Virus record (IMG/VR): IMGVR_UViG_2690316166_000006
Location: 1-24,678 of that record
From: a virus
Lineage: Duplodnaviria > Heunggongvirae > Uroviricota > Caudoviricetes
Length of the DNA stretch: 24,678 nucleotides
Strand: one strand, 5' to 3'
The notes beneath the pieces are model-generated. The model was not told the origin of the DNA. It made no database searches and worked only from the letters and a program-made list of their open reading frames with translations. Position numbers and translations under genes: made by a program. Shown in pieces: positions 3,101-20,098 of the stretch. Within the stretch, counting starts at the first letter, position 1; the number at the start of each line of letters is the position of its first letter.

Positions 3101-3509
3101 TACTAAATCCACGAATAACACTGGTGCGCATACCCATAGTTTAAGTGGCAGCACGAATGCAGCTGGTAATCACAGCCATAGAGATGGCCGTCGATTTAAC
3201 CCCAGTGTTTTTAAAGATACTTATCAATATGGTTATACAAGCTCAGGTCAAAATACTTGGGGTGTACAAGGCTCAGTAGGTATGTCTACGGGGTGGTTAG
3301 CTAATACCAGTACAGATGGTAATCATAGCCACTCACTGTCCGGCACAGCAGCATCTGCAGGTGCACACGCACATACTGTCGGTATTGGTGCACACACGCA
3401 CTCCGTTGCGATTGGTTCACATGGACATACCATCACCGTTAACGCTGCTGGTAACGCGGAAAACACCGTCAAAAACATCGCATTTAACTATATTGTGAGG
3501 CTTGCATGA
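111..3509 (+). CDS. stf: Side tail fibre protein (lambda Stf / Rac StfR-like, about 1130 aa) with a divergent central region
   Basis: ORF 105..3509. The N-terminus [26 protein letters not shown] and the Ala/Ser-rich repeats match lambda Stf from memory. The C-terminus has His-rich HxH repeats ([43 protein letters not shown]) and ends [11 protein letters not shown]. The ATG at 111 is preferred over the GTG at 105. Confidence 0.9.
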
Positions 3510-4396
3510 TTACGCTCATTCTTTCTGCACCAGTAACAGAAATGGCTGAAGCATTTAAGCGGGTATTTGCAAACGCAGATAATGTGAATATTGTCGGAAA
3601 GCCATTTGAAACAATCAGAGAATTTGACTGCATGGTAAGTGCGGCAAATAGTTTCGGCCTGATGGATGGCGGCGTTGATGCCGCCATTACCGCATTCTTC
3701 GGTACTCAGTTACAGTCCCGCGTTCAGAATCATATTCTTCGTGAATATCTAGGCGAACAGCCTGTAGGTTCTGCATTTGTAATTGAAACGGGGCATAATC
3801 ATCACCCCTGGCTGGTACATGCGCCAACAATGCGTGTTCCGCTGACAATTGACGGAACAGACGCTGTATATAATGCAACCTGGGCCGCTCTGCTTGCCAT
3901 CTTTCAGCACAATAAAAACGCAACGACAGACAGGAAAATAAAGACGGTGGTATTCCCTGCAATGGGGGCCGGATGTGGTCAGGTTCCGTTTGAAAGCGTT
4001 GCCTGGCAAATGAAGCAGGCATGGGATAACTTTAATAAGAAAACAGAATCAATTTACTGGGAATACGCACACTCCCGCCAGTCGGCAGTATTTGGCACAT
4101 ATGCATACTGTCCGGGTAATTCTGTTTGCCGTTATGCGGATACTAAATATATTGGATGCGGCGATTATCGGACGTATTGCTCACGTTCCGGGCAGTTCTG
4201 TATTAGCCATGTGCATCAGGCTGATGACGTGCTGACTAATAATCGCTCTCGCCCTGATTCGCATACACACCGGTTTAATCCAGAAAATCCCGTAGGCAAT
4301 CTCACCTCTGGCGCACATAGCCACGGAAGTAGCATCGTTATTGGTGCTCCCACCCATACGCTCAATAAACAATATTCTGTCTCTGATATTAAGTAG
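3506..4396 (+). CDS. Macro-domain (ADP-ribose binding/processing family) protein with a Cys/His-rich C-terminal region resembling a fibre tip
   Basis: ORF 3506..4396, 296 aa. Motifs [26 protein letters not shown] and [22 protein letters not shown] fit the macro-domain signature. The C-terminus ([25 protein letters not shown]) echoes Stf tip motifs ([19 protein letters not shown]). The start ATGA overlaps the stf stop, with GAGG 5 nt upstream. Confidence 0.7.
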
Positions 4397-4404
4397 AGGT
4401 GAAC

Positions 4405-4980
4405 ATGGATTTTAGAATGACTGAACAACCACGGACCATAAAAATTTATAATTTGCTGGCCGGAACTAATGAATTTATTGGTGAAGGTGATGCATACATT
4501 CCACCTCATACAGGTCTACCTGCAAACAGTACCGATATTGCACCGCCAGATATTCCGGCAGGCTTCGTGGCTGTTTTCAACGGTGATGATGCATCGTGGC
4601 ATCTCGTTGAAGATCATCGTGGTAAAACGGTTTATGACGTGGCATCAGGGGACGCGTTATTTATTTCTGAACTCGGTCCGTTACCGGAAAATGTTACTTG
4701 GTTGTCGCCGGAAGGGGAATATCAGAAGTGGAACGGTACAGCTTGGGTGAAAGATGCAGAAGCAGAAAAACTATTCCGGATCCGGGAGGCGGAAGAAACA
4801 AAAAACAGCCTGATGCAGGTAGCCAGTGAGCATATTGCGCCGCTTCAGGATGCTGCAGATCTGGAAATCGCAACGGAGGAAGAAACCTCGTTGCTGGAAG
4901 CCTGGAAAAAGTATCGGGTGTTGCTGAACCGTGTTGATACATCACTATCTCCAGATATCGAGTGGCCAAGTCAACCATAA
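4405..4980 (+). CDS. tfa: Tail fibre assembly protein (lambda Tfa family)
   Basis: ORF 4399..4980. The sequence [57 protein letters not shown] and the C-terminal [24 protein letters not shown] match lambda Tfa from memory. The ATG at 4405 is preferred, with GAGGTG upstream. Confidence 0.9.
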
Positions 4981-5012: not shown

Positions 5013-5978
5013 TTAATTATCAGTAGATTGTTCCTCTAGTAACAACTCAATTCTGCTTAGTATTTCTTTAGATATTTTGCGGCTATCAATTTTTATAGTT
5101 ACAAAATTACCTTTATATCTGGCCGTGATCCCTTCCCCATATTTTTTCTCGTCTTTTGTTTTTTCCTCGCCGCCAACCAGAACAGAGTCAGATAATATTT
5201 GTATAATCCGTGAAGCTTCTAAATCCTCGCCGTTTTTTTTAATTGCCAGAAGATGATGAGCAGCATTGCTCATGGCAGCCATGTTTTTTTTGTAAACCTT
5301 AAACAAAGAATCTCCAGCACGAGCTGACAGTTCTCCTGGATGATTGAAGATAGCTAATATATCTTTTGGTAGACCAGCTGTATTAATACAGCGAGTGATA
5401 ATATTTCTATCTATATTTTCAGCCTCGGCTAATGCTTTAACGTTACCATCAAAGTCATTTAGCTTGCGTAAGTATCTCTTTCCTCTTTCGTATGCACTAA
5501 TAGGCCTATAATCGTTACCAATTTGGGATAACCAATGCATCTGTTCATCGTCGAGATCACCAATTAAGACGCGATAGTCACATCCTGTTAATATCGCTGC
5601 TTTTCTTCTACGTGAGCCGTCAGCGACTTCAACGATTCCAGATACTTTTCTGGCGAAAGCTGGATTTTGTTGTCCAGACGTTAGAAAAGATGGGATTAAA
5701 TCGGCTAGAGAGGATTCATTTAATAAATCTTGATCGCGTTCATTACCTAGCCATACCATTGTTGCCATTTCAACTTTATCTGCGGGAATTGTCTCTAACT
5801 TAAAGTTAACATTACGTCCGCATACTGGCAAAGTTATGCTGTTACCGGTTAATGAACTCAGTTGACGTTTTAAATCACCAACCATAGGTGATACGGGCTG
5901 ATGTTCAGGGGCATGATGATTATTACTCATAATGCGATTAATATCTGGAGCATTTTTTAGAAGAGAGCGCTGTTTCAT
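5013..5978 (-). CDS. sopB: Partition protein SopB (ParB-family centromere-binding protein, F SopB-like)
   Basis: 321 aa. Segments ITLPVCGRNVNFKLE, WLGNERDQDLL, LIPSFLTSGQQNPAFARKVSGIVEVADGSRRRKAAILTGCDYRVLIGDLDDEQM, NDYRPISAYERGKRY and LFNHPGELSARAGD match F-plasmid SopB from memory. Confidence 0.93.
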   Translation of the reverse strand: MKQRSLLKNAPDINRIMSNNHHAPEHQPVSPMVGDLKRQLSSLTGNSITLPVCGRNVNFKLETIPADKVEMATMVWLGNERDQDLLNESSLADLIPSFLTSGQQNPAFARKVSGIVEVADGSRRRKAAILTGCDYRVLIGDLDDEQMHWLSQIGNDYRPISAYERGKRYLRKLNDFDGNVKALAEAENIDRNIITRCINTAGLPKDILAIFNHPGELSARAGDSLFKVYKKNMAAMSNAAHHLLAIKKNGEDLEASRIIQILSDSVLVGGEEKTKDEKKYGEGITARYKGNFVTIKIDSRKISKEILSRIELLLEEQSTDN

Positions 5979-7144
5979 TATTCGTTCTCCCAGCGAGGTT
6001 TTATTAGATCATCAAAAATTTCTCGGCAAACAGGGTCCCATATAGAAACAGCATTTCTCCATGCATTCAATGTTGAACGTTGGTTTGCTGCTTGTTCAAA
6101 TACTGTTCTCATTTTTATCTGGCCTTTACCTACTTCATCGGTAACGCGTACAACCTGACGTAATACCATTGATCCCCATGTATTTCTTATTTGTTCTTCC
6201 ATCCATCGTGATTGATTCCCTGTAGTGAGACTATATTTAGTCAGAAGTAAGCGAACGGTTGGCTCAAATCCACCTAGGTCAACGCTTTCCAATAGATCGA
6301 GAAGCATTGTGAAAAACTGTAGAACAGAAGCGTAATCAAATAATTCTGCAGGTGTAGCAACAACAATAACGTCAGCGGCACAAACAACGTTAATGGTTCC
6401 TGTACCGAGGTTCGGAGCACTATCTATAACGATAACATCGTAGTTATCCCAAACTGATTCAATAGCTGCGCGCAGCATAAGGTGTGGAGGATGAGGCAAT
6501 TTACCCTGAGCATGATATTGCATGAGATCTGTTTCTATACGATGTAAAGCTAGGCAGCTAGGGATAATGTCTAGCCCAGGCCAACATGTTGGCTTTATAG
6601 CATATTCAGCGTTATCGCGTTCTCCTAAGTAAAATGGCAGTAAAGTATCCTCGGCATGGATATGTAAATCAGGAACATAACCGTGATACATAGAGGCCGT
6701 GCCTTGAGGATCGTTACCTTCAACCAAAAGAACACGATGACCTTGTAATGCTAACCATTGAGCTTGATGTACCGCAGACGATGTTTTATAAACGCCGCCT
6801 TTGTGTGACATAACGGCAAGCACAACAGGGTTTTTATCTTGTGGTCGTTGGTTTGGGTTGCCAAAAACTGCTCGCATACTGTTGATTTGATCTATGGTAT
6901 AACCAGCACGACGTTCAATTCTTCCTCTCATTTCAAAGTCAGGTGCAGGTAAACGCCCGCTCTTCTCAGCATCTCTAATTGCTTGAGGAGTTACACCAAT
7001 TAAATCTGCTACTTCAGTTATACCCCATCGGCGGGTGATACGCCGAGCTTCAGGACTATCATCACCGAATTGAGCGATAGCAATTGCTTGGGTCATTTCT
7101 TGACCTCTCGTAACACAATCTTGCAATAACTTTTTCAAAGACAT
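5978..7144 (-). CDS. sopA: Partition ATPase SopA (ParA/Walker-type, F SopA-like)
   Basis: 388 aa. Segments KGGVYKTS (deviant Walker A), LLVEGNDPQGTASMYHGYVPDLHIHAEDTLLPFYLGE, AIKPTCWPGLDIIPSCLALHRIET, VIVIDSAPNLG and WMEEQIR..WGSMVL match F SopA from memory. The stop overlaps the sopB start by 1 nt (TAATG). GGAGA lies upstream of the ATG. Confidence 0.93.
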   Translation of the reverse strand: MSLKKLLQDCVTRGQEMTQAIAIAQFGDDSPEARRITRRWGITEVADLIGVTPQAIRDAEKSGRLPAPDFEMRGRIERRAGYTIDQINSMRAVFGNPNQRPQDKNPVVLAVMSHKGGVYKTSSAVHQAQWLALQGHRVLLVEGNDPQGTASMYHGYVPDLHIHAEDTLLPFYLGERDNAEYAIKPTCWPGLDIIPSCLALHRIETDLMQYHAQGKLPHPPHLMLRAAIESVWDNYDVIVIDSAPNLGTGTINVVCAADVIVVATPAELFDYASVLQFFTMLLDLLESVDLGGFEPTVRLLLTKYSLTTGNQSRWMEEQIRNTWGSMVLRQVVRVTDEVGKGQIKMRTVFEQAANQRSTLNAWRNAVSIWDPVCREIFDDLIKPRWENE

Positions 7145-7159
7145 ACTGTCATCTCCAGC

Positions 7160-7245
7160 TTGTAACTTTGCTTAATAATTAAATCTTTGCTTATTTCTAG
7201 CAAATTTGCATGAAAAAGGCAAAGCAAAACAAAAAACGCAAAGGC
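7160..7245 (-). promoter_or_regulatory. sop operon promoter/operator region with four CTTTGC / GCAAAG hexamers
   Basis: CTTTGC at 7166 and 7185; GCAAAG at 7219 and 7238, each pair 19 bp apart. F sopAB autoregulation uses repeated CTTTGC SopA-binding motifs. Confidence 0.55.
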
Positions 7246-7432
7246 GAATATTTGAGCTAAATCATCTTTTGTTCCCCTCCCGAAATGCATAAAACGAACA
7301 ACAATATAATCATAACTAATTGATATTTATTACCTTTTCTAAGAAAGGAAATCATATAAAACTAGAGAAACATGATAAGAATCATCAATGAGATACGTTT
7401 TCTATATTAGTTATCCCAACCTTACCAACATA

Positions 7433-7574
7433 AGAACACAAACAGAGAACATAAAAACAAAGTAATAATACAAACACAATAAAGAACATAAATAAAGAAT
7501 TAAAACAAATGTTAAATAAAAACAGTACGCAAACTGAGAACATTACATTAAACAAGAACACTAATCAAGAACAT
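7433..7574. repeat. Array of six AGAACA(T/C) direct repeats in the AT-rich region left of the telomere palindrome
   Basis: Copies at 7433, 7447, 7483, 7537, 7555 and 7568. Related GAACA motifs occur to the right of the palindrome at 7633 and 7647, and in inverted form at 7698. Confidence 0.5.
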
Positions 7575-7580
7575 AACGAA

Positions 7581-7622
7581 ACATAATTCCCCATTATACG
7601 CGCGTATAATGGGGAATTATGT
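7581..7622. promoter_or_regulatory. Telomere resolution site (telRL/telO-like): perfect 42-bp palindrome with a central CGCG, in uncleaved form
   Basis: acataattccccattatacgcgcgtataatggggaattatgt is its own reverse complement. The core CCCATTATACGCGCGTATAATGG matches the N15 telO core from memory. It lies between the divergent sopA and telN genes. Confidence 0.85.
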
Positions 7623-7792
7623 GCTGATCTTTAGAACAAAGTCAAGGAACAATTTTTAACGTTCCGATATTGTGTTTTTGTTTATTATCCGTCATTATGT
7701 TCTGTTAGTTTGTGACTAAGTTAACGCGTTATTAGTTATCTTATTCTCAAATTGTGTTACGATAATCCGAGCGGACAATCAGGAGAGGAAAG

Positions 7793-9694
7793 ATGAGCAA
7801 AGTAAAAATCGGTGAATTAATAAACTCACTTGTTAGCGATGTTGAGTCAATAGATAACTCTGACCGTCCTCAAGGGGAAAAAACAAAAAAAATAAAAGCT
7901 GTTGCATTAAAATTTAAAAATGCATTATTTAATGACAAGCGAAAGTTTAGGGGGAAAGGATTAGAAAAAAGAATTACAGCCAACACATTCAATGCCTATA
8001 TGAGCAGGGCCAGAAAACGGTTTGATGATAAACTTCATCATAGCTTTGAAAAAAATATACATCGCCTATCTGAAAAGTATCCTTTATATAATGAGGAGCT
8101 ATTATCATGGCTTTCTCTACCTGCTGCCGATATTCGCCAGAGAATGTCAGCTTTACAGGCAAAATTAAAATTAATTCTCCCTTTATCAGAAGATTTATCT
8201 AATATCAGAATTGGTGATAACAAAAGTCATAATAAGTTATTAAAATTATCAAATAAATATAAAGAGTGGCAATTCGCCATTTCTGATTTAACTAGCGATA
8301 ACTGGAAAGATAAGCGCGATTATTTATATAAATTACTACAGCAAGGATCTGCCTTACTTGAGGAGTTGAATCAGCTAAAAGTTAACCATGAGATTCTCTA
8401 TCATCTTCAACTAAGCCCTGCCGAACGCGCATCTATCCAGCAACGATGGGCAGACGTTCTGCACAATAAGAAACGTAACGTGGTGGTCATTGATTACCCT
8501 AAATATATGCAAGCTATTTACGATATTATAAATAGCCCTGCTACATTAAATAATCTAAACACTCGTTCAGGTATGGCTCCTTTGGCATTTGCACTTGCTG
8601 CATTGTCAGGAAGACGAATGATTGAGATTATGTATCAAGGTACATTTACTGTTTCTGGTAAGTATACCGTTGATTTTTTAGGCCAAGCAAAAAAAAGAAC
8701 TTCTGATGATATAACCAGAAAAATATATACATTATGCGAAGCAAAAACATTTGTTTATTTAATAAATGTACTTCGCTCATGCCCAGCAGCATCTGATTTT
8801 GATGATGTCGTTAAAGGTTATGGAGATAACGACACACGCTCTGAAAACGGACGGATTAATGCCATATTAGCAAAGGCTTTTAACCCGTGGGTTAAATCAT
8901 TTTTCAAAGATGACCGCCGTGTTTATAAAGATAGTCGTGCTATTTATGCCCGTATTGCGTATGAAATGTTTTTCCGCGTAGATCCTCGTTGGAAAAACGT
9001 AGATGAGGATGTTTTCTTTATGGAAATTTTAGGCCATGACGATGAAAACACTCAATTACACTATAAGCAATTCAAGCTGGCCAACTTCTCAAAGACATGG
9101 AGGCCAAATACTGGAAACGAAAATACCAGGCTGGAAGCATTGCAGCAGCTTGATGACGAAATGCCAGGATTCGCCAGAGGAGATGCCGGAGTTCGTCTGC
9201 ATAACACAGTTAAGCAGCTGGTAGAGCAGGACCCCTCTATAAAAATCACGAACAGCACTCTAAGAGCATTCAAATTTAGCCCTACAATGATTAGTCGATA
9301 CCTGGAATTTGCTGCTGATGCTCTGGGGCAATTTGTTGGCGAAAATGGACAATGGCAGCTGAAAATAGATTCTCCAGAAATCGTTATGCCTGACGAAGAA
9401 GAGCTGGAAGCAATACCTGAACAGACGGATGAATTATCAGAGGATGACGATCTGGATGACGACGAAATTGAGATAGAGGAAGAGGAAGAGGAAGAGGAAG
9501 AGAGCGTAGAAGAACAGCAACCGCCCGCGCCTTCTTCACCTGTATCTAAGCCGGTATTTAAGCCTGTGAGAAATATTGGTGATGGCTCATACGTTGTTGA
9601 ATTTCATTATAATGGCCAGAATTATGCTTGGTCCGGCAGTGCAAACAGCCCTATATCAGCAATGCAGTTAGCATGGCTGACATATTTCGGATAA
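7793..9694 (+). CDS. telN: Protelomerase TelN (telomere resolvase, tyrosine-recombinase-like)
   Basis: 633 aa. The N-terminus MSKVKIGELIN..DRPQGEKTKKIKA..KNALFNDKRKFRGKGL.KRITANTFNAYMSRARKRFDDKLHHSF and internal NTRSGMAPLAFALAA.SGRRMIEIM, RINAILAKAFNPWVKSFF and YARIAYEMFFRVDPRWKNVDEDVFFMEILGHDDENTQLHYKQFKLANFS match N15 TelN from memory. AGGAGAGG precedes the ATG. Confidence 0.95.
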   Translation: MSKVKIGELINSLVSDVESIDNSDRPQGEKTKKIKAVALKFKNALFNDKRKFRGKGLEKRITANTFNAYMSRARKRFDDKLHHSFEKNIHRLSEKYPLYNEELLSWLSLPAADIRQRMSALQAKLKLILPLSEDLSNIRIGDNKSHNKLLKLSNKYKEWQFAISDLTSDNWKDKRDYLYKLLQQGSALLEELNQLKVNHEILYHLQLSPAERASIQQRWADVLHNKKRNVVVIDYPKYMQAIYDIINSPATLNNLNTRSGMAPLAFALAALSGRRMIEIMYQGTFTVSGKYTVDFLGQAKKRTSDDITRKIYTLCEAKTFVYLINVLRSCPAASDFDDVVKGYGDNDTRSENGRINAILAKAFNPWVKSFFKDDRRVYKDSRAIYARIAYEMFFRVDPRWKNVDEDVFFMEILGHDDENTQLHYKQFKLANFSKTWRPNTGNENTRLEALQQLDDEMPGFARGDAGVRLHNTVKQLVEQDPSIKITNSTLRAFKFSPTMISRYLEFAADALGQFVGENGQWQLKIDSPEIVMPDEEELEAIPEQTDELSEDDDLDDDEIEIEEEEEEEEESVEEQQPPAPSSPVSKPVFKPVRNIGDGSYVVEFHYNGQNYAWSGSANSPISAMQLAWLTYFG

Positions 9695-10134: not shown

Positions 10135-10460
10135 GCAGCCACCTCGCGCACCGGAATACGGGCAGACAATACCAGGACAAACCGGCTGGCGAACTGGCGA
10201 CGAGCTTCCCGTTCAGATGACGCGATGGTGGAAAGATGATGGATGTGTGACTTTTTGTCTGTGCGAACGACTGCCGCAAATTTGAATTTGAACATGGTAT
10301 GCACTCTTGTTTGGTAAAACAGTGCTACCACCAGAGTTGAGAATCTCTATGGGGTGGTAGCCCAAGCGGGGTTCTCAACACCGGCCCAAACGACACCGGC
10401 CAGCCTTTCGGCTGCCCCACCTGAGCCACCATAATTCGGATATGCGCAGGCTCATACACA

Positions 10461-10484
10461 CAAAAAAACACGCTGGCGCGTGTT
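10461..10484 (-). terminator. Rho-independent terminator on the minus strand
   Basis: On the minus strand: stem acacgc / gcgtgt with loop gcca, then seven U (plus-strand A-run 10462-10468). Confidence 0.55.
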
Positions 10485-10594
10485 GTGCGTCGTTCGGATT
10501 TCGGGGTTGAGAGTCCCGGCTACGGGATTTACCGCAGCGAAGTAACTTTACCGTCAAAACGACGCACACGTCAATAATTTGCAAAGGCATTTTA
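10485..10594 (-). ncRNA. Candidate structured small RNA or leader upstream of the anti-immunity genes
   Basis: No credible ORF. A long-range inverted repeat gtgcgtcgtt (10485-10494) / aacgacgcac (10557-10566) encloses internal hairpins (cccggctacggg) and the region ends at the minus-strand terminator. Ends are not defined. Confidence 0.3.
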
Positions 10595-10614
10595 CCCCGT
10601 GACCAGTCACGGGG
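10595..10614. promoter_or_regulatory. 20-bp perfect palindrome ccccgtgaccagtcacgggg (GTGACYRGTCAC family, copy 1)
   Basis: Perfect inverted repeat, followed on the plus strand by acaggtgttttta. A TATAAA on the minus strand lies just upstream (plus 10623-10628), so the palindrome would sit at the start of the leftward transcript. Confidence 0.5.
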
Positions 10615-10675
10615 ACAGGTGTTTTTATAGTTTGCTTGAACGAGTGTTCAGAAGTTGATCGTTAATCAAAGGCCA

Positions 10676-10963
10676 TTACTGATTAAGAGATTGGAAATAC
10701 CTAACTAACTTACCGGCATCATCACATTTTTCTTTATCTTCTTCCTTAACATAGCCGCGACAAAAGGCTGAATAAAATTTTGCATTTTCAGAAGCAAAAG
10801 CAGCCGTCGAAAGGAGCAGTTCTTTGCATGATTCTTTTGATGCAGCATCGGGATTATTTTTACATGCAAGCTCTGCTGATGAGTCAATAACAGAAATGCT
10901 ATCTTCCTGGGCATAAACCGCAGCAGAAAAGGCAAAACATAAAACAAAAATAAAACTCTTCAC
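10676..10963 (-). CDS. Small secreted, Cys-containing protein (95 aa) of unknown function
   Basis: ORF 10676..10963. N-terminal signal peptide MKSFIFVLCFAFSAAVYA-QE. The mature part is hydrophilic with four Cys. Confidence 0.55.
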   Translation of the reverse strand: MKSFIFVLCFAFSAAVYAQEDSISVIDSSAELACKNNPDAASKESCKELLLSTAAFASENAKFYSAFCRGYVKEEDKEKCDDAGKLVRYFQSLNQ

Positions 10964-10990
10964 TTTATCTCCTGTAACAGTTATCGCAAC

Positions 10991-11386
10991 TCAATCAACT
11001 TTTTTAGCATCAGCCATACGCTTCAACCAGTAATCAACAATCGGTTGCTCATCCACAGAATGTTTACCAGGTATAACTAGCCAGCTGTCTGCCGAAAGGC
11101 TACCGTATCTATGCGGGAAAAGGCATTTCTTTAGCTCCTGCCATGTGCTAGGAAAACCGTCTGCCAAAGTGCCAATTAACAGAAAAGGGACAAAAATCAG
11201 GGCTACAAACCATCGGGCAAGAAAGTGCTCAACAATAACCTCTTCACCGTTATAGTAATACGCATACGTATCCCATATACGAATTTTCCTTACCCTAAAA
11301 ATGGCCTTATGCTGAGAACGACTTAGCTTGATGCGAATGTATCCCTTATCCAAGAGGGATTGGTGTTTGTATGATTGAACAGCCAT
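10991..11386 (-). CDS. Small single-pass membrane protein (132 aa) of unknown function
   Basis: ORF 10991..11398 trimmed to the ATG at 11386, which has a GGGG run a few nt upstream. Hydrophobic helix FLARWFVALIFVPFLLIGTLA. Starts 2 nt after the upstream gene stop. Confidence 0.5.
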   Translation of the reverse strand: MAVQSYKHQSLLDKGYIRIKLSRSQHKAIFRVRKIRIWDTYAYYYNGEEVIVEHFLARWFVALIFVPFLLIGTLADGFPSTWQELKKCLFPHRYGSLSADSWLVIPGKHSVDEQPIVDYWLKRMADAKKVD

Positions 11387-11388
11387 TT

Positions 11389-11715
11389 TTAACCCCACTC
11401 ACCATCAGCAAACAAAGCGTTATACTCTGACAATGGTAGACGGTTGCCCTCGATGTAGAGATTCAGTTCATACTTCGTCTCCGGGTTTTCCTTGTCGGCT
11501 CGTTCCCAACGCTCAGCAGCCTTACGCGCCAATAATTCCACTGCTTTCAGGTAATCCTCCGTACGGAACCAGCCAAAGATAAGGCCACGATCTGTTACAG
11601 CCCAGGCGACCTTTTTTTCTTCCTCCTGGATAGCCTTAATGCGTCGATCGCATTCATCCCGGCAGAACTGCAGCTGACGGTAATCAAGTTTGTCCAAAAA
11701 TGCAGTAGTAGACAT
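11389..11715 (-). CDS. Hypothetical protein (108 aa)
   Basis: ORF 11389..11715 with ATG start and GGGGAG 8 nt upstream. Confidence 0.55.
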   Translation of the reverse strand: MSTTAFLDKLDYRQLQFCRDECDRRIKAIQEEEKKVAWAVTDRGLIFGWFRTEDYLKAVELLARKAAERWERADKENPETKYELNLYIEGNRLPLSEYNALFADGEWG

Positions 11716-16144: not shown

Positions 16145-16741
16145 TCATCTACCCTCAACCATGAATGATTTGATCGTTCCGACTATTTGGTGAACAAATT
16201 CAAGATCGCTTTTCCTGAAGATAGCGCGTTGTGAATTTGTTCCGTCCAGATAGTAATTTTCATCATCAAAACGGGCCAGGCGCTGGATGGTGATATTTCC
16301 TGCAGTATCACGAACCAGAACATCCTCGCCGGGGACCAGTTCCAGCGCAGAATCGACCAGGAGAAAATCGCCAGGCTGATAGTTTCCCTGCGCCAGATTG
16401 CTGATAGTTAACGCATAAACAGTATTGCGCTGGCTGATGAATGGCAGGAATCGCTCAGTATTTGGAACCTGTCCTGGCTTCCACTCTTCATCAGGTCCAC
16501 TTTCAGTTGTGCCAATAACAGGAATGCGATCAGGGTCATATTCTGTCCCATACAGCACCCAATGCACTGGCTTGCGTAAGCATTTAGCCAGGGCAATACC
16601 TATCTCCAGTGACGGCATTACGTCGCCACGTTCTAAGTTTTGGACGCCTGCAATAGAGATATCGACAGCCTCAGCAACTTCTCGCAACGTCAGCTTCATC
16701 TCTAAACGGCGTGCTTTCAGTCGTTCGCCTCGTGTTTTCAT
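16145..16741 (-). CDS. cB: Prophage repressor CB (CI-like: N-terminal HTH plus C-terminal LexA/S24-like domain)
   Basis: 198 aa. N-terminal HTH (LTLREVAEAVDISIAGVQNLERG) and a C-terminal domain of S24-peptidase-like length. Divergent from a cro-like gene across an operator-bearing intergenic region. Confidence 0.85.
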   Translation of the reverse strand: MKTRGERLKARRLEMKLTLREVAEAVDISIAGVQNLERGDVMPSLEIGIALAKCLRKPVHWVLYGTEYDPDRIPVIGTTESGPDEEWKPGQVPNTERFLPFISQRNTVYALTISNLAQGNYQPGDFLLVDSALELVPGEDVLVRDTAGNITIQRLARFDDENYYLDGTNSQRAIFRKSDLEFVHQIVGTIKSFMVEGR

Positions 16742-16763: not shown

Positions 16764-16805
16764 TTATAGCTGGCTATAAAATTTATTTATTATAGCTGGC
16801 TTTAA
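16764..16805. promoter_or_regulatory. Immunity operators: palindrome TTATAGC-TG-GCTATAA (16764-16779) and a second copy TTATAGCTGGCTTTAA (16790-16805)
   Basis: Two related 16-bp sites 26 bp apart between cB and cro. A TATAAT at 16821-16826 lies 6 bp upstream of the cro ATG. Confidence 0.6.
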
Positions 16806-16832
16806 ATGCGATTTATTGCTTATAATAACCGC

Positions 16833-17054
16833 ATGAAACCAGAAGAACTTATTCGCCACTTTGGCAGTGTAGAAAAAGCAGCGGCTGGGGTAGGTGTAAC
16901 ACCCGGTGCTGTTTACCAATGGTTAACCGCTGGAGAGATTCCTTCATTGCGGCAAAGTGATATTGAAGTTCGTACTGCTTACAAGCTGAAGAGTGACTTT
17001 ACAACTCGGCGGGTAAAGCAGTCGATTAAGGAGAGCCGTAAGCGTGGAGCTTGA
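16833..17054 (+). CDS. cro: Cro-like small DNA-binding protein
   Basis: ORF 16806..17054. The ATG at 16833 is preferred (MKPEELIRHFGSVEKAAAGVGVTPGAVYQWL: helix-turn-helix). The TATAAT just upstream suggests a leaderless transcript. Confidence 0.75.
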   Translation: MKPEELIRHFGSVEKAAAGVGVTPGAVYQWLTAGEIPSLRQSDIEVRTAYKLKSDFTTRRVKQSIKESRKRGA

Positions 17055-18814: not shown

Positions 18815-19236
18815 TGGCAAAGTCTTTTACACCAGAACAGAGGAAAGAACTGAATAAACAAATTGTGGAACTCGTGCGCCTGAATGGACGAGGAACGGTT
18901 AGGCAACTTGCGGATGAAACTGGTATTAGCCGGTGTGCTGTTAGTCGTTTATCAAGAGAGCTTGCTGCCAGTGGTGATTTGTATATCTCTGGCTCCGGGA
19001 TATTTCTGTCTGCACAAGCACGCAAGGACTGGCAAAACGCCCGTAAAAAACTATCAAGAGTAAAGCCGAAGAAATCGGTAGTGGTTGATCCAGACCTTAT
19101 CTGGTCATTACCTGACGGAGAAATACGTCGTTACGACAGGCGCTTGAACATGATTTGTCACGATTGTCGGAAGAGCGAAGTTATGCAGCGTGTACTGGCG
19201 TTTTATCAGGGAAATTTTCATGAGGTGGTGCGGTGA
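18814..19236 (+). CDS. Putative winged-helix/HTH DNA-binding protein (140 aa)
   Basis: ORF 18814..19236. GTVRQLADETGISRCAVSRLSREL resembles an HTH. Start overlaps the upstream stop. Confidence 0.5.
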   Translation: MAKSFTPEQRKELNKQIVELVRLNGRGTVRQLADETGISRCAVSRLSRELAASGDLYISGSGIFLSAQARKDWQNARKKLSRVKPKKSVVVDPDLIWSLPDGEIRRYDRRLNMICHDCRKSEVMQRVLAFYQGNFHEVVR

Positions 19237-19523
19237 ATATCGACACAACAATGACGGTCGATACGGTTCTGAATACTGGTCTGGCCCTGTTTGGTTATTT
19301 TTACATCATGTTCAGCGCAGGGAAGTGGGCGGCCACTGTTTTTCTAAAACAGTGGAAAAAACGGCGCAAACAGGAGCTACGCCAGAAGGCATTAGAAGCG
19401 TTCTATGACGCATTTGAACTTAACAGCATTGAACCAGGCACAACAGTCAGAGTGGCAACCAAAGGTGATCTGATGATCATGATGTTCCGACAGGAGAAAG
19501 CAGAGAAAGGGGAATCCGCATGA
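19233..19523 (+). CDS. Small membrane protein (96 aa)
   Basis: Hydrophobic segment LNTGLALFGYFYIMFSAGKWAATVF. Overlaps both neighbours by 4 nt. Confidence 0.5.
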   Translation: MNIDTTMTVDTVLNTGLALFGYFYIMFSAGKWAATVFLKQWKKRRKQELRQKALEAFYDAFELNSIEPGTTVRVATKGDLMIMMFRQEKAEKGESA

Positions 19524-20098
19524 AATTTTCCAAATTTTCTGAGTTGGTGAATCGTATCTTGTCCAACAAACACAGCCAGCGTTGCGATATGAATGTAACG
19601 ATTGTTGTTCATTCACCAGGTAGCATTGGTTCAACACCATCAGTTGATGTTCAGTCAATTCAGGCTGGTTTTGACTGGGATTCCGGACAAGTAATGATTT
19701 TTCCAGCCCAGCAACTGACTACGCTAACTCCAGAGCAGGTTGCTGATATTACTGAAAGCGTGCGCAAAGGACAGTCCTGGCACGCATATCAGGAATACAA
19801 AAAGCATAAAGAGCAGTTGGAAAAATTGTCTATTGAGCTGGAAGCTGCAAGAAAGCGAATTGTAGAACAGGGAAACAAAGTAACACCAGTGTCAGCTGAA
19901 CTGCCACCTGCAAATGAAAGTGTTTTGTTATTCGATGCTAACGGAGAAGGCTGGCTGATTGGCTGGCGTTCTCTCTGGTACACCTGGGGACAAAAAGAAA
20001 CCGGAGAATGGCAGTGGACATTTCAGGTCGGGGATCTTGAAAACGTCAATATCACTCATTGGGCAGTAATGCCGAAAGCACCGGAGGCTGGAGCATAA
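19520..20098 (+). CDS. Hypothetical protein (192 aa)
   Basis: ORF 19520..20098. The C-terminal W-rich segment (WLIGWRSLWYTWGQ ... ITHWAVMPKAPE) resembles the DUF551 family, from memory only. Confidence 0.5.
   Translation: MKFSKFSELVNRILSNKHSQRCDMNVTIVVHSPGSIGSTPSVDVQSIQAGFDWDSGQVMIFPAQQLTTLTPEQVADITESVRKGQSWHAYQEYKKHKEQLEKLSIELEAARKRIVEQGNKVTPVSAELPPANESVLLFDANGEGWLIGWRSLWYTWGQKETGEWQWTFQVGDLENVNITHWAVMPKAPEAGA

Follow-up and report, generated by a model that had tools for sequence, protein, structure and literature searches.

DNA from a virus of the Caudoviricetes (IMG/VR record IMGVR_UViG_2690316166_000006, positions 1 to 24,678; this whole stretch of 24,678 nucleotides is called the window below) carries a perfect 42-bp palindrome between the partition gene sopA and the protelomerase gene telN. 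This raises the question of whether the palindrome is a telomere-forming site, what the short AGAACAY repeats on both of its sides represent, and what can be concluded from the palindrome being intact. Our comparative analyses indicate that the locus is very probably the telRL site of an N15-like temperate Escherichia phage-plasmid, and that the flank repeats are degenerate copies of its outer boxes. The features that define the site and its immediate surroundings are as follows.

7581-7622 (42 bp, dyad 7601/7602, no strand assigned): telRL perfect palindrome, defined by inverted-repeat search, core comparison and folding.
7591-7612 (no strand assigned): 22-bp telO core CCATTATACGCGCGTATAATGG, identical in N15 and phiKO2.
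7793-9694, plus strand: telN, protelomerase of 633 amino acids with Pfam TelK_N, muzzle, ResT-TelK catalytic and stirrup domains.
5978-7144, minus strand: sopA, ParA/SopA ATPase, an open reading frame annotated as sopA in relatives.
5013-5978, minus strand: sopB, forming with sopA the partition operon (5013-7144), divergent from telN.

The two arms of the palindrome (7581-7601 and 7602-7622, 21 + 21 nt) are separated by a spacer of 0 nt, are 100% complementary and meet at a centre of TACGCGCGTA. When the whole 24,678-bp window was scanned, no other perfect palindrome had arms of 10 nt or longer; by our own arithmetic the chance expectation of such a structure is about 24678 x 4^-21, or about 6e-9. 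Folded as single-stranded DNA it reaches -17.5 kcal/mol, with z = -8.1 relative to shuffled sequences. Its central 23 bp (CCCATTATACGC/GCGTATAATGG) are exactly those of N15. Thus, both a palindrome centred on TACGCGCGTA and the 22-bp telO core that mark an N15-type telRL/tos target are present, and the initial annotation, which had described a perfect 42-bp palindrome between sopA and telN matching the N15 telO core, was correct on both counts. The exact 22-mer was found in 36 IMG/VR stretches, in many of them at a contig end or at the centre of a mirror. The exact 42-mer was not found in a species-representative genome set, an absence that carries no weight, as each species is represented there by a single genome.

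The palindrome lies in a 648-bp spacer from which sopA and the protelomerase gene diverge; telN starts 171 bp past the right edge of the palindrome and 192 bp from the dyad. The same siting between divergent sopA and telN is seen in the N15 and phiKO2 records. The enzyme encoded next to the site is a protelomerase with all four TelK/TelN domains. It could be aligned over residues 1-536 with the TelK structure 2V6E of phiKO2 (E = 1.9e-295), is 77% identical to N15 TelN (gp29), and keeps the catalytic Tyr424 within LHYKQF, aligned to the N15 tyrosine. Beyond the stirrup domain, residues ~536-590 (9398-9560) form a long, strongly acidic E/D linker with nine consecutive Glu, which joins that domain to a conserved C-terminal end of ~40 amino acids; the linker sequence is unlike that of N15, its acidity being kept.

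According to a passage in PMC12624138 (EMBO J 2025) that summarises Deneke et al. (2000, 2002), efficient resolution requires a 56-bp telRL made up of telO together with the outer boxes L3 and R3. In the window an R3-type box is present, and the box at the place of L3 is degenerate.

7615-7628, minus strand: R3-type outer TelN box AATTATGTGCTGAT (N15: CTATTGTGTGCTGATA), with the core ACATAAT on the minus strand.
7575-7588, plus strand: L3-equivalent outer box AACGAAACATAATT, degenerate, with 10 of 14 positions as in the mirrored R3.

In the relatives EC12401 and S142 the symmetric TATCAGCACATAATT is kept, which gives a symmetric 56-bp site. The degenerate L3-equivalent arm occurs on both sides of the hairpin mirror in NZ_LT906558, described below, and a telomere with this arm is therefore maintained.

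Whether such a site is used in vivo can be judged from other molecules with the same palindrome and the same enzyme. The record NZ_LT906558 reads sopA, palindrome, sopA′ and is a perfect mirror of 1289 bp about the same dyad, with the same 42-mer; its left arm is that of the window over the 45 bp beside the dyad and 99.4% identical over 723 bp. NZ_CP031108 shows the reciprocal arrangement (telN′, palindrome, telN), a perfect mirror of 1521 bp again with the same 42-mer. A metagenome contig encoding an identical TelN is a perfect mirror over at least 9809 bp about the same dyad. Further contigs with the same TelN stop at the site: one is mirror-symmetric and begins 41 nt short of the dyad, and two begin at +12. 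The wider set agrees, since many of the 36 IMG/VR stretches with the 22-bp core stop within tens of bases of the dyad or mirror for kilobases. The deposited record of Escherichia phage PhiR46_1 is linear, and annotated telL and telR sites bound it. When a covalently closed hairpin is sequenced, mirrored contigs and contigs broken off at the dyad are the result; elements with this palindrome and enzyme therefore use the site as a telomere. The hairpin-telomere reading of the initial annotation is borne out in these near-identical elements, and from them cleavage is predicted here as well: after cutting and rejoining by TelN, 7581-7622 would form the hairpin tip at both ends of the prophage.

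Several public "complete" plasmids are mirror artefacts of a ~46-kb hairpin-ended replicon, arranged either as sopA, tel, sopA′ or as telN′, tel, telN. We noted such loci in NZ_LT906558 (52753-56474), NZ_CP014491, NZ_CP031108 and ERZ27300339 k141_74148; among the examples, pG749_3 (62.6 kb) and pAMSC3 (27.2 kb) both bear the label circular, and RL465 plasmid III (61.5 kb) was deposited as linear. Other records of 68-92 kb with four matching places probably share the mirror-assembly problem.

The spacer around the palindrome is filled with short repeats on both sides of the dyad. AGAACAY occurs six times on the plus strand (7433, 7446, 7483, 7537, 7555 and 7568) and once on the minus strand (7697-7703), in agreement with the six or more AGAACA(T/C) repeats that had been noted initially. 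The whole window holds 19 copies against 6.6 expected. In the flanks the excess is far sharper: seven dyad-pointing copies were counted against 0.23 expected, and none of 2000 dinucleotide-preserving shuffles of the flanks alone reached that number, which rules out a chance origin of the repeats in A-rich DNA. The copies fall into three groups.

7427-7586, plus strand: left (sop-side, telR) subtelomeric array with nine AACAY copies (7427, 7435, 7448, 7473, 7485, 7539, 7557, 7570 and 7580, the last being the core of the L3-equivalent box).
7669-7758, minus strand: right (telN-side, telL) inward copies AAACACAAT (7669-7676), AGAACATAAT (7694-7703) and TAACACAAT (7751-7758).
7634 and 7647 (region 7633-7652; offsets +33 and +46), plus strand: two conserved GAACAA copies, directed away from the dyad.

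A tenth left-side AACAY stands outside the array at 7369; six of these ten are AGAACAY copies, and all ten are dyad-directed. Taking both arms together, 13 of 14 AACAY copies point inward and one outward, with the consensus rRAACAYAAt. The extended form AACAYAA behaves in the same way (eight on the plus strand left of the dyad, three on the minus strand to its right, none in the opposite orientation). The repeats share their core with the outer TelN box, in which ACAYAAT is found both in N15 (CACACAAT) and in the window (CACATAAT); of 11 ACAYAAT in the window, seven lie within 7113-7757, and all seven are dyad-directed.

Results of comparisons with relatives showed that the positions of the repeats are kept while the sequence between them drifts. 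The offsets -165, -154, -63/-64, -32, +33, +46, +70, +97 and +151 are shared by N15, Enterobacter plasmids and the E. coli clade, despite an ungapped identity of just 33-59% between the flank blocks of the window and of N15. Invariant islands in six diverged relatives including N15 are GAACAT (-32), AGAACA (+32), ATTATGTTCT (+92) and ATTGTGTTACGATA (+149), and GAACAA at +45 is conserved in five of these six. When seven close relatives were compared, no variation was seen in 26 of 30 columns of the GAACA cores, against 72 of 131 columns elsewhere (Fisher p = 8e-4). The polarity is likewise general: at most full-flank sites among the 36 IMG/VR stretches, 8-12 ACAYAA point inward within +-200 bp, and 0-1 outward. 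In phiKO2, Klebsiella and Citrobacter elements, TAACAC is found at the corresponding places.

Such an arrangement has been described for N15. The passage in PMC12624138 drawing on Deneke et al. gives the natural TelN target of N15 as ~310 bp with degenerate copies of L3/R3, and in the window degenerate L3/R3 copies extend ~150 bp per side. According to the same paper, CTD1 (the stirrup domain) is proposed to bind the degenerate copies and thereby recruit several TelN, and is dispensable for end protection (PMC12624138). The repeats match the described N15 array and are therefore the counterpart of a known N15 feature of hypothetical function; the suggestion in the initial annotation that they are accessory TelN sites equals this published hypothesis.

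From these data we infer the following course of events. After infection and cos circularisation, a TelN dimer would bind the palindrome and make staggered cuts 6 bp apart around the dyad, probably through 3′-phosphotyrosyl intermediates on Tyr424, as judged from the chemistry described in TelK and TelN studies. Each half would then be rejoined on itself, giving a linear prophage with closed hairpins, telL beside telN and telR beside sopA. Following replication, the same enzyme would resolve the telLL and telRR junctions. The AGAACAY and RAACAYAA(T) copies, dyad-directed on both arms, would represent degenerate L3/R3 copies that extend the target to ~330 bp (7427-7758), homologous to the ~310-bp N15 target with its L1/L2/R1/R2 repeats. 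Most likely they recruit extra TelN via the stirrup domain, as was proposed for N15. This extra TelN would cap the hairpins and could extend its occupancy as far as the telN promoter, perhaps also to a distal sop promoter.

The initial annotation had also suggested that the repeats may instead be promoter elements coupling tel, sop and telN regulation, and the spacer contains three features that bear on this idea.

7166-7243 (no strand assigned): four CTTTGC boxes (two plus, two minus) just upstream of sopA, apart from the AGAACAY array.
7616-7645, minus strand: sigma-70 promoter-like site TTGACT/18-nt spacer/CATAAT, 10/12, a consensus match only.
7755-7763, plus strand: candidate extended -10 of the telN promoter, TGTTACGAT, within the most conserved flank island.

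The CTTTGC cluster at 7166-7243 presumably resembles the SopA operator and proximal sop promoter region of the F plasmid. The proximal sop operator is this separate cluster, not the AGAACAY array. The motif ATTGTGTTACGATA lies ~35 bp upstream of the telN start and contains TGTTACGAT, a plausible extended -10 of telN; TTGTGT begins at offset +151 in 11 of 11 sequences. The inward repeat copy at 7751-7758 overlaps this probable -10, and such an overlap would allow TelN autoregulation. In the leftward promoter-like site, which is directed across the dyad to sopA, the -10 falls within the right palindrome arm; its -35 is conserved in the E. coli clade and not in N15, where the best equivalent candidate takes the L3 box as -35. 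It could reach sopAB in the uncut form only, and TelN bound to telRL would occlude it. After resolution the same site would stand at the telL hairpin tip, aimed at the end. Dorokhov, Lane and Ravin are said to have described, in 2003, a second N15 sop promoter under protelomerase control. The promoter assignments stay hypotheses because consensus matches are no commoner than in shuffled sequences.

Several observations weigh against parts of the interpretation of the locus as an N15-type telRL with TelN-binding flanks. That this exact site is cut by this exact TelN is concluded from relatives, and TelN binding to the flank repeats is a supposition in N15 as here. The L3-equivalent box differs from the mirror of R3 at 4 of 14 positions, and the GAACAA copies at +33 and +46 are conserved yet wrongly oriented. 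The L3/R3 boxes stay GCACAYAA across clades using GAACAY and clades using TAACAC; as they are constant while the flank motifs vary by clade, the flank repeats could have a reader different from TelN. A host or clade-specific phage protein controlling sop and/or telN transcription through AGAACAY would also account for the fact that GAACAY is used in N15, E. coli and Enterobacter elements and TAACAC in those of phiKO2, Klebsiella and Citrobacter, and that the +33 and +46 copies are direct, not mirrored, and bracket the -35-like TTGACT of the leftward promoter-like site, with the +151 copy overlapping the likely telN -10. We consider such a reader unlikely: the ACAYAAT core is shared with the outer TelN box, and 13 of 14 AACAY are dyad-directed, as a telomere-binding protein would give. 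No candidate was found among the regulators whose motifs were compared, the CB repressor being rejected since its operators (TTATAGCTGGCTATAA) are an unrelated motif, and SopA since its CTTTGC boxes, likewise unrelated, cluster separately at 7166-7243. Within TelN itself, the stirrup domain offers a lead. TelN proteins form three clades at about equal distances from one another (81-84% identity as far as the end of this domain), and in the patch at residues 491-502 (nt ~9263-9298) the 10 amino acids AFKFSPTMIS are identical in both GAACAY-using clades and differ at 4-6 positions in the TAACAC-using clade (PFNFSTRLIP or PYNFSTRMIS). This covariation of patch and repeat type would fit a stirrup domain that reads the repeats, and is only a lead because it amounts to about one evolutionary event, which counts among the points against, and because the L3/R3 boxes are alike between the clades. 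The C-terminal tail of TelN (acidic linker and conserved ~40-amino-acid end) was rejected as the reader; being 55-58% identical to N15 and phiKO2 alike, it shows no covariation. A fuller version of the TelN proposal would have the polar RAACAYAA(T) arrays act as a conserved subtelomere that loads several TelN via patch 491-502, co-evolving with GAACAY/TAACAC, into an asymmetric cap (~10 sop-side and 3-4 telN-side sites) that shields the hairpins and sets telN and sop expression, 7616-7645 reaching sopAB only when uncut; this is tentative, and we regard it as rather unlikely.

Two further explanations concern the palindrome itself. One takes it for a structural element of a general kind, such as a cruciform, a repressor operator or an intrinsic terminator acting in both directions, and could be argued from the very stable single-stranded fold and from a consensus scan that calls it terminator-like on both strands. 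A Rho-independent terminator requires a stem-loop and T-run at the 3′ end of a transcription unit, and here both adjacent genes start and none end, so the palindrome fails as a terminator because its neighbours begin at it and diverge from it. Moreover, the core is base for base the telO of N15 and phiKO2, independent assemblies mirror or end at the dyad, and the cognate protelomerase is adjacent; the explanation is effectively refuted. The other proposal, made in the initial annotation, takes the intact telRL as a biologically meaningful capture, specifically of virion or replicative-intermediate DNA. The gene order (tail fibre, sopBA, telRL, telN, repA, cB) agrees with the N15 virion map, and joining the arms over a 42-bp palindrome would presumably need spanning sequence if the k-mer exceeded 42. 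Yet elements with an identical TelN and the same 42-mer are found in joined form (sopA, telRL, telN) in four isolate drafts and are mirrored or truncated in others. The joined form is also present in eight PLSDB and six RefSeq E. coli records, those examined being labelled circular, and the reference GenBank record of N15 is likewise written with telRL intact. Lysogen cultures may be expected to hold both forms, which assemblers would merge into one circular map, and the window contains no cos site. Because elements with identical TelN appear joined, truncated or mirrored by assembly, the intact palindrome says little about the sequenced molecule, and we find a special capture doubtful. Whether the palindrome appears intact is a question of how the genome is represented, and deposits routinely show the uncut "phage map".

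With the locus taken as an N15-type telRL, its likeness to the named systems can be set out. The telRL/tos of N15 (AF064539, repeat_region 24775-24830, cut at 24802/3) is sited in the same way between sopA and telN; the N15 record annotates its palindrome as the cut site for prophage formation, and the phiKO2 record as telRL. N15 shares with the window the central 23 bp, the R3-type box, TelN Tyr424 and a colinear map, as well as flank repeats at the offsets -154, -63/-64, -32, +33, +46, +97 and +151. The identity by BLAST of 7569-7764 with N15 is ~72%. In contrast to the perfect 42 bp of the window, the N15 site is a 56-bp imperfect repeat with perfect arms of just 11 nt. L3 is degenerate in the lineage of the window, whose left arm also has more GAACAY copies, and the leftward promoter-like site lies in the right arm, unlike the N15 candidate with its L3-based -35. 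phiKO2 and its TelK have the same 22-bp core, gene context and four domains, phiKO2-type TelN being ~82% identical up to the stirrup domain, whereas the phiKO2 clade departs from the window in its TAACAC-type flank repeats and in the patch PFNFSTRLIP (AFKFSPTMIS in the window). The Yersinia phages PY54 and vB_YenS_P840 have a palindromic telRL beside the protelomerase gene, as in the window, and the PY54 palindrome is also 42 bp. Of the alignment with N15, phiKO2 and PY54 tel sites suggested by the initial annotation, the first two gave the shared core, and a PY54-type telRL was undetected by the nucleotide searches made with the window. The inverted repeat flanking the Yersinia telRL has been discussed as accessory for in vivo processing (PMC10612081), and TelPY gives no protection to TelN ends, nor TelN to those of TelPY (PMC12624138).

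The closest relatives of the window are other Escherichia and Shigella elements. The nearest records are Escherichia phage PhiR46_1, phage YDC107_1 and plasmids of E. coli, E. albertii and Shigella, with a tel region of up to 99% identity; several of the N15-like plasmids of these hosts (NZ_CP055252, NZ_JBVFXE010000005, NZ_LT906558) reach up to 99% over the whole region. In a public assembly collection, 226 blocks list the identical TelN protein, and Escherichia/Shigella N15-like phage-plasmids have already been surveyed (bioRxiv 10.1101/2025.09.12.675607). PhiR46_1 (PV340565), a record in the linear prophage permutation as opposed to the joined permutation of the window, is 97-100% identical to the window in the right arm and 73-94% in the sop-side arm. 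The two arms thus differ in ancestry; with the change falling at telRL, exchange of arms appears to take place at the telomere site or close to it. Between elements with 99-100% identical flanking genes the sop-side subtelomere is 81-95% identical. We rejected it as a uniquely hypervariable region: 10200-11400 (antirepressor/C4 RNA) and 19200-19650 are at least as divergent, and the sop-side variation is therefore ordinary phage mosaicism.

Outside this locus, too, the window is colinear with N15-like elements and has the gene set of an N15-like (Ravinvirus-type) phage-plasmid, namely lambdoid tail fibre genes, sopBA, telN, an antirepressor region, a RepA-type primase/helicase of 1331 amino acids, cB, cro and Q. 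No Rfam RNA family was found in the sopA-telN spacer. Downstream of telN, the antirepressor region gave minus-strand Rfam matches to the C4 antisense RNA (10350-10436, 71.8 bits) and to isrK (10463-10538, 54.9 bits). This C4/isrK region is the most divergent patch relative to same-TelN elements, with identity down to 77%, which fits an immunity-specificity determinant. On the plus strand at 3506-4396, a 296-amino-acid open reading frame with a Macro domain (Pfam Macro 3.9e-18; PHROG 2613) is situated between the gene for the side tail fibre and that for tail fibre assembly; in one same-TelN relative it is missing and the tail fibre gene directly adjoins the assembly gene. A full-length Rfam IS009 match (4748-4946, plus strand, 221.8 bits) lies within the tail fibre assembly gene (4399-4980). 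Between cB and cro, two palindromic operator-like boxes (TTATAGCTGGCTATAA and TTATAGCTGGCTTTAA) are found at 16766-16806 and presumably are the CB/Cro operators.

16145-16741, minus strand: cB.
16806-17054, plus strand: cro.

The site is an already known, textbook telRL/tos, and its lineage is well represented in public databases, including a record with annotated telL and telR. In public records, mis-assembly often turns the hairpin-ended replicons of the N15-like family into mirrored plasmids or plasmids of excessive size, and the dyad of the palindrome is a simple diagnostic for such cases. The residual value of the locus lies in a base-resolution map of the accessory repeats and in a candidate specificity patch in the stirrup domain of TelN, which together could guide work on how TelN caps hairpin telomeres, a question raised for N15 in 2025.

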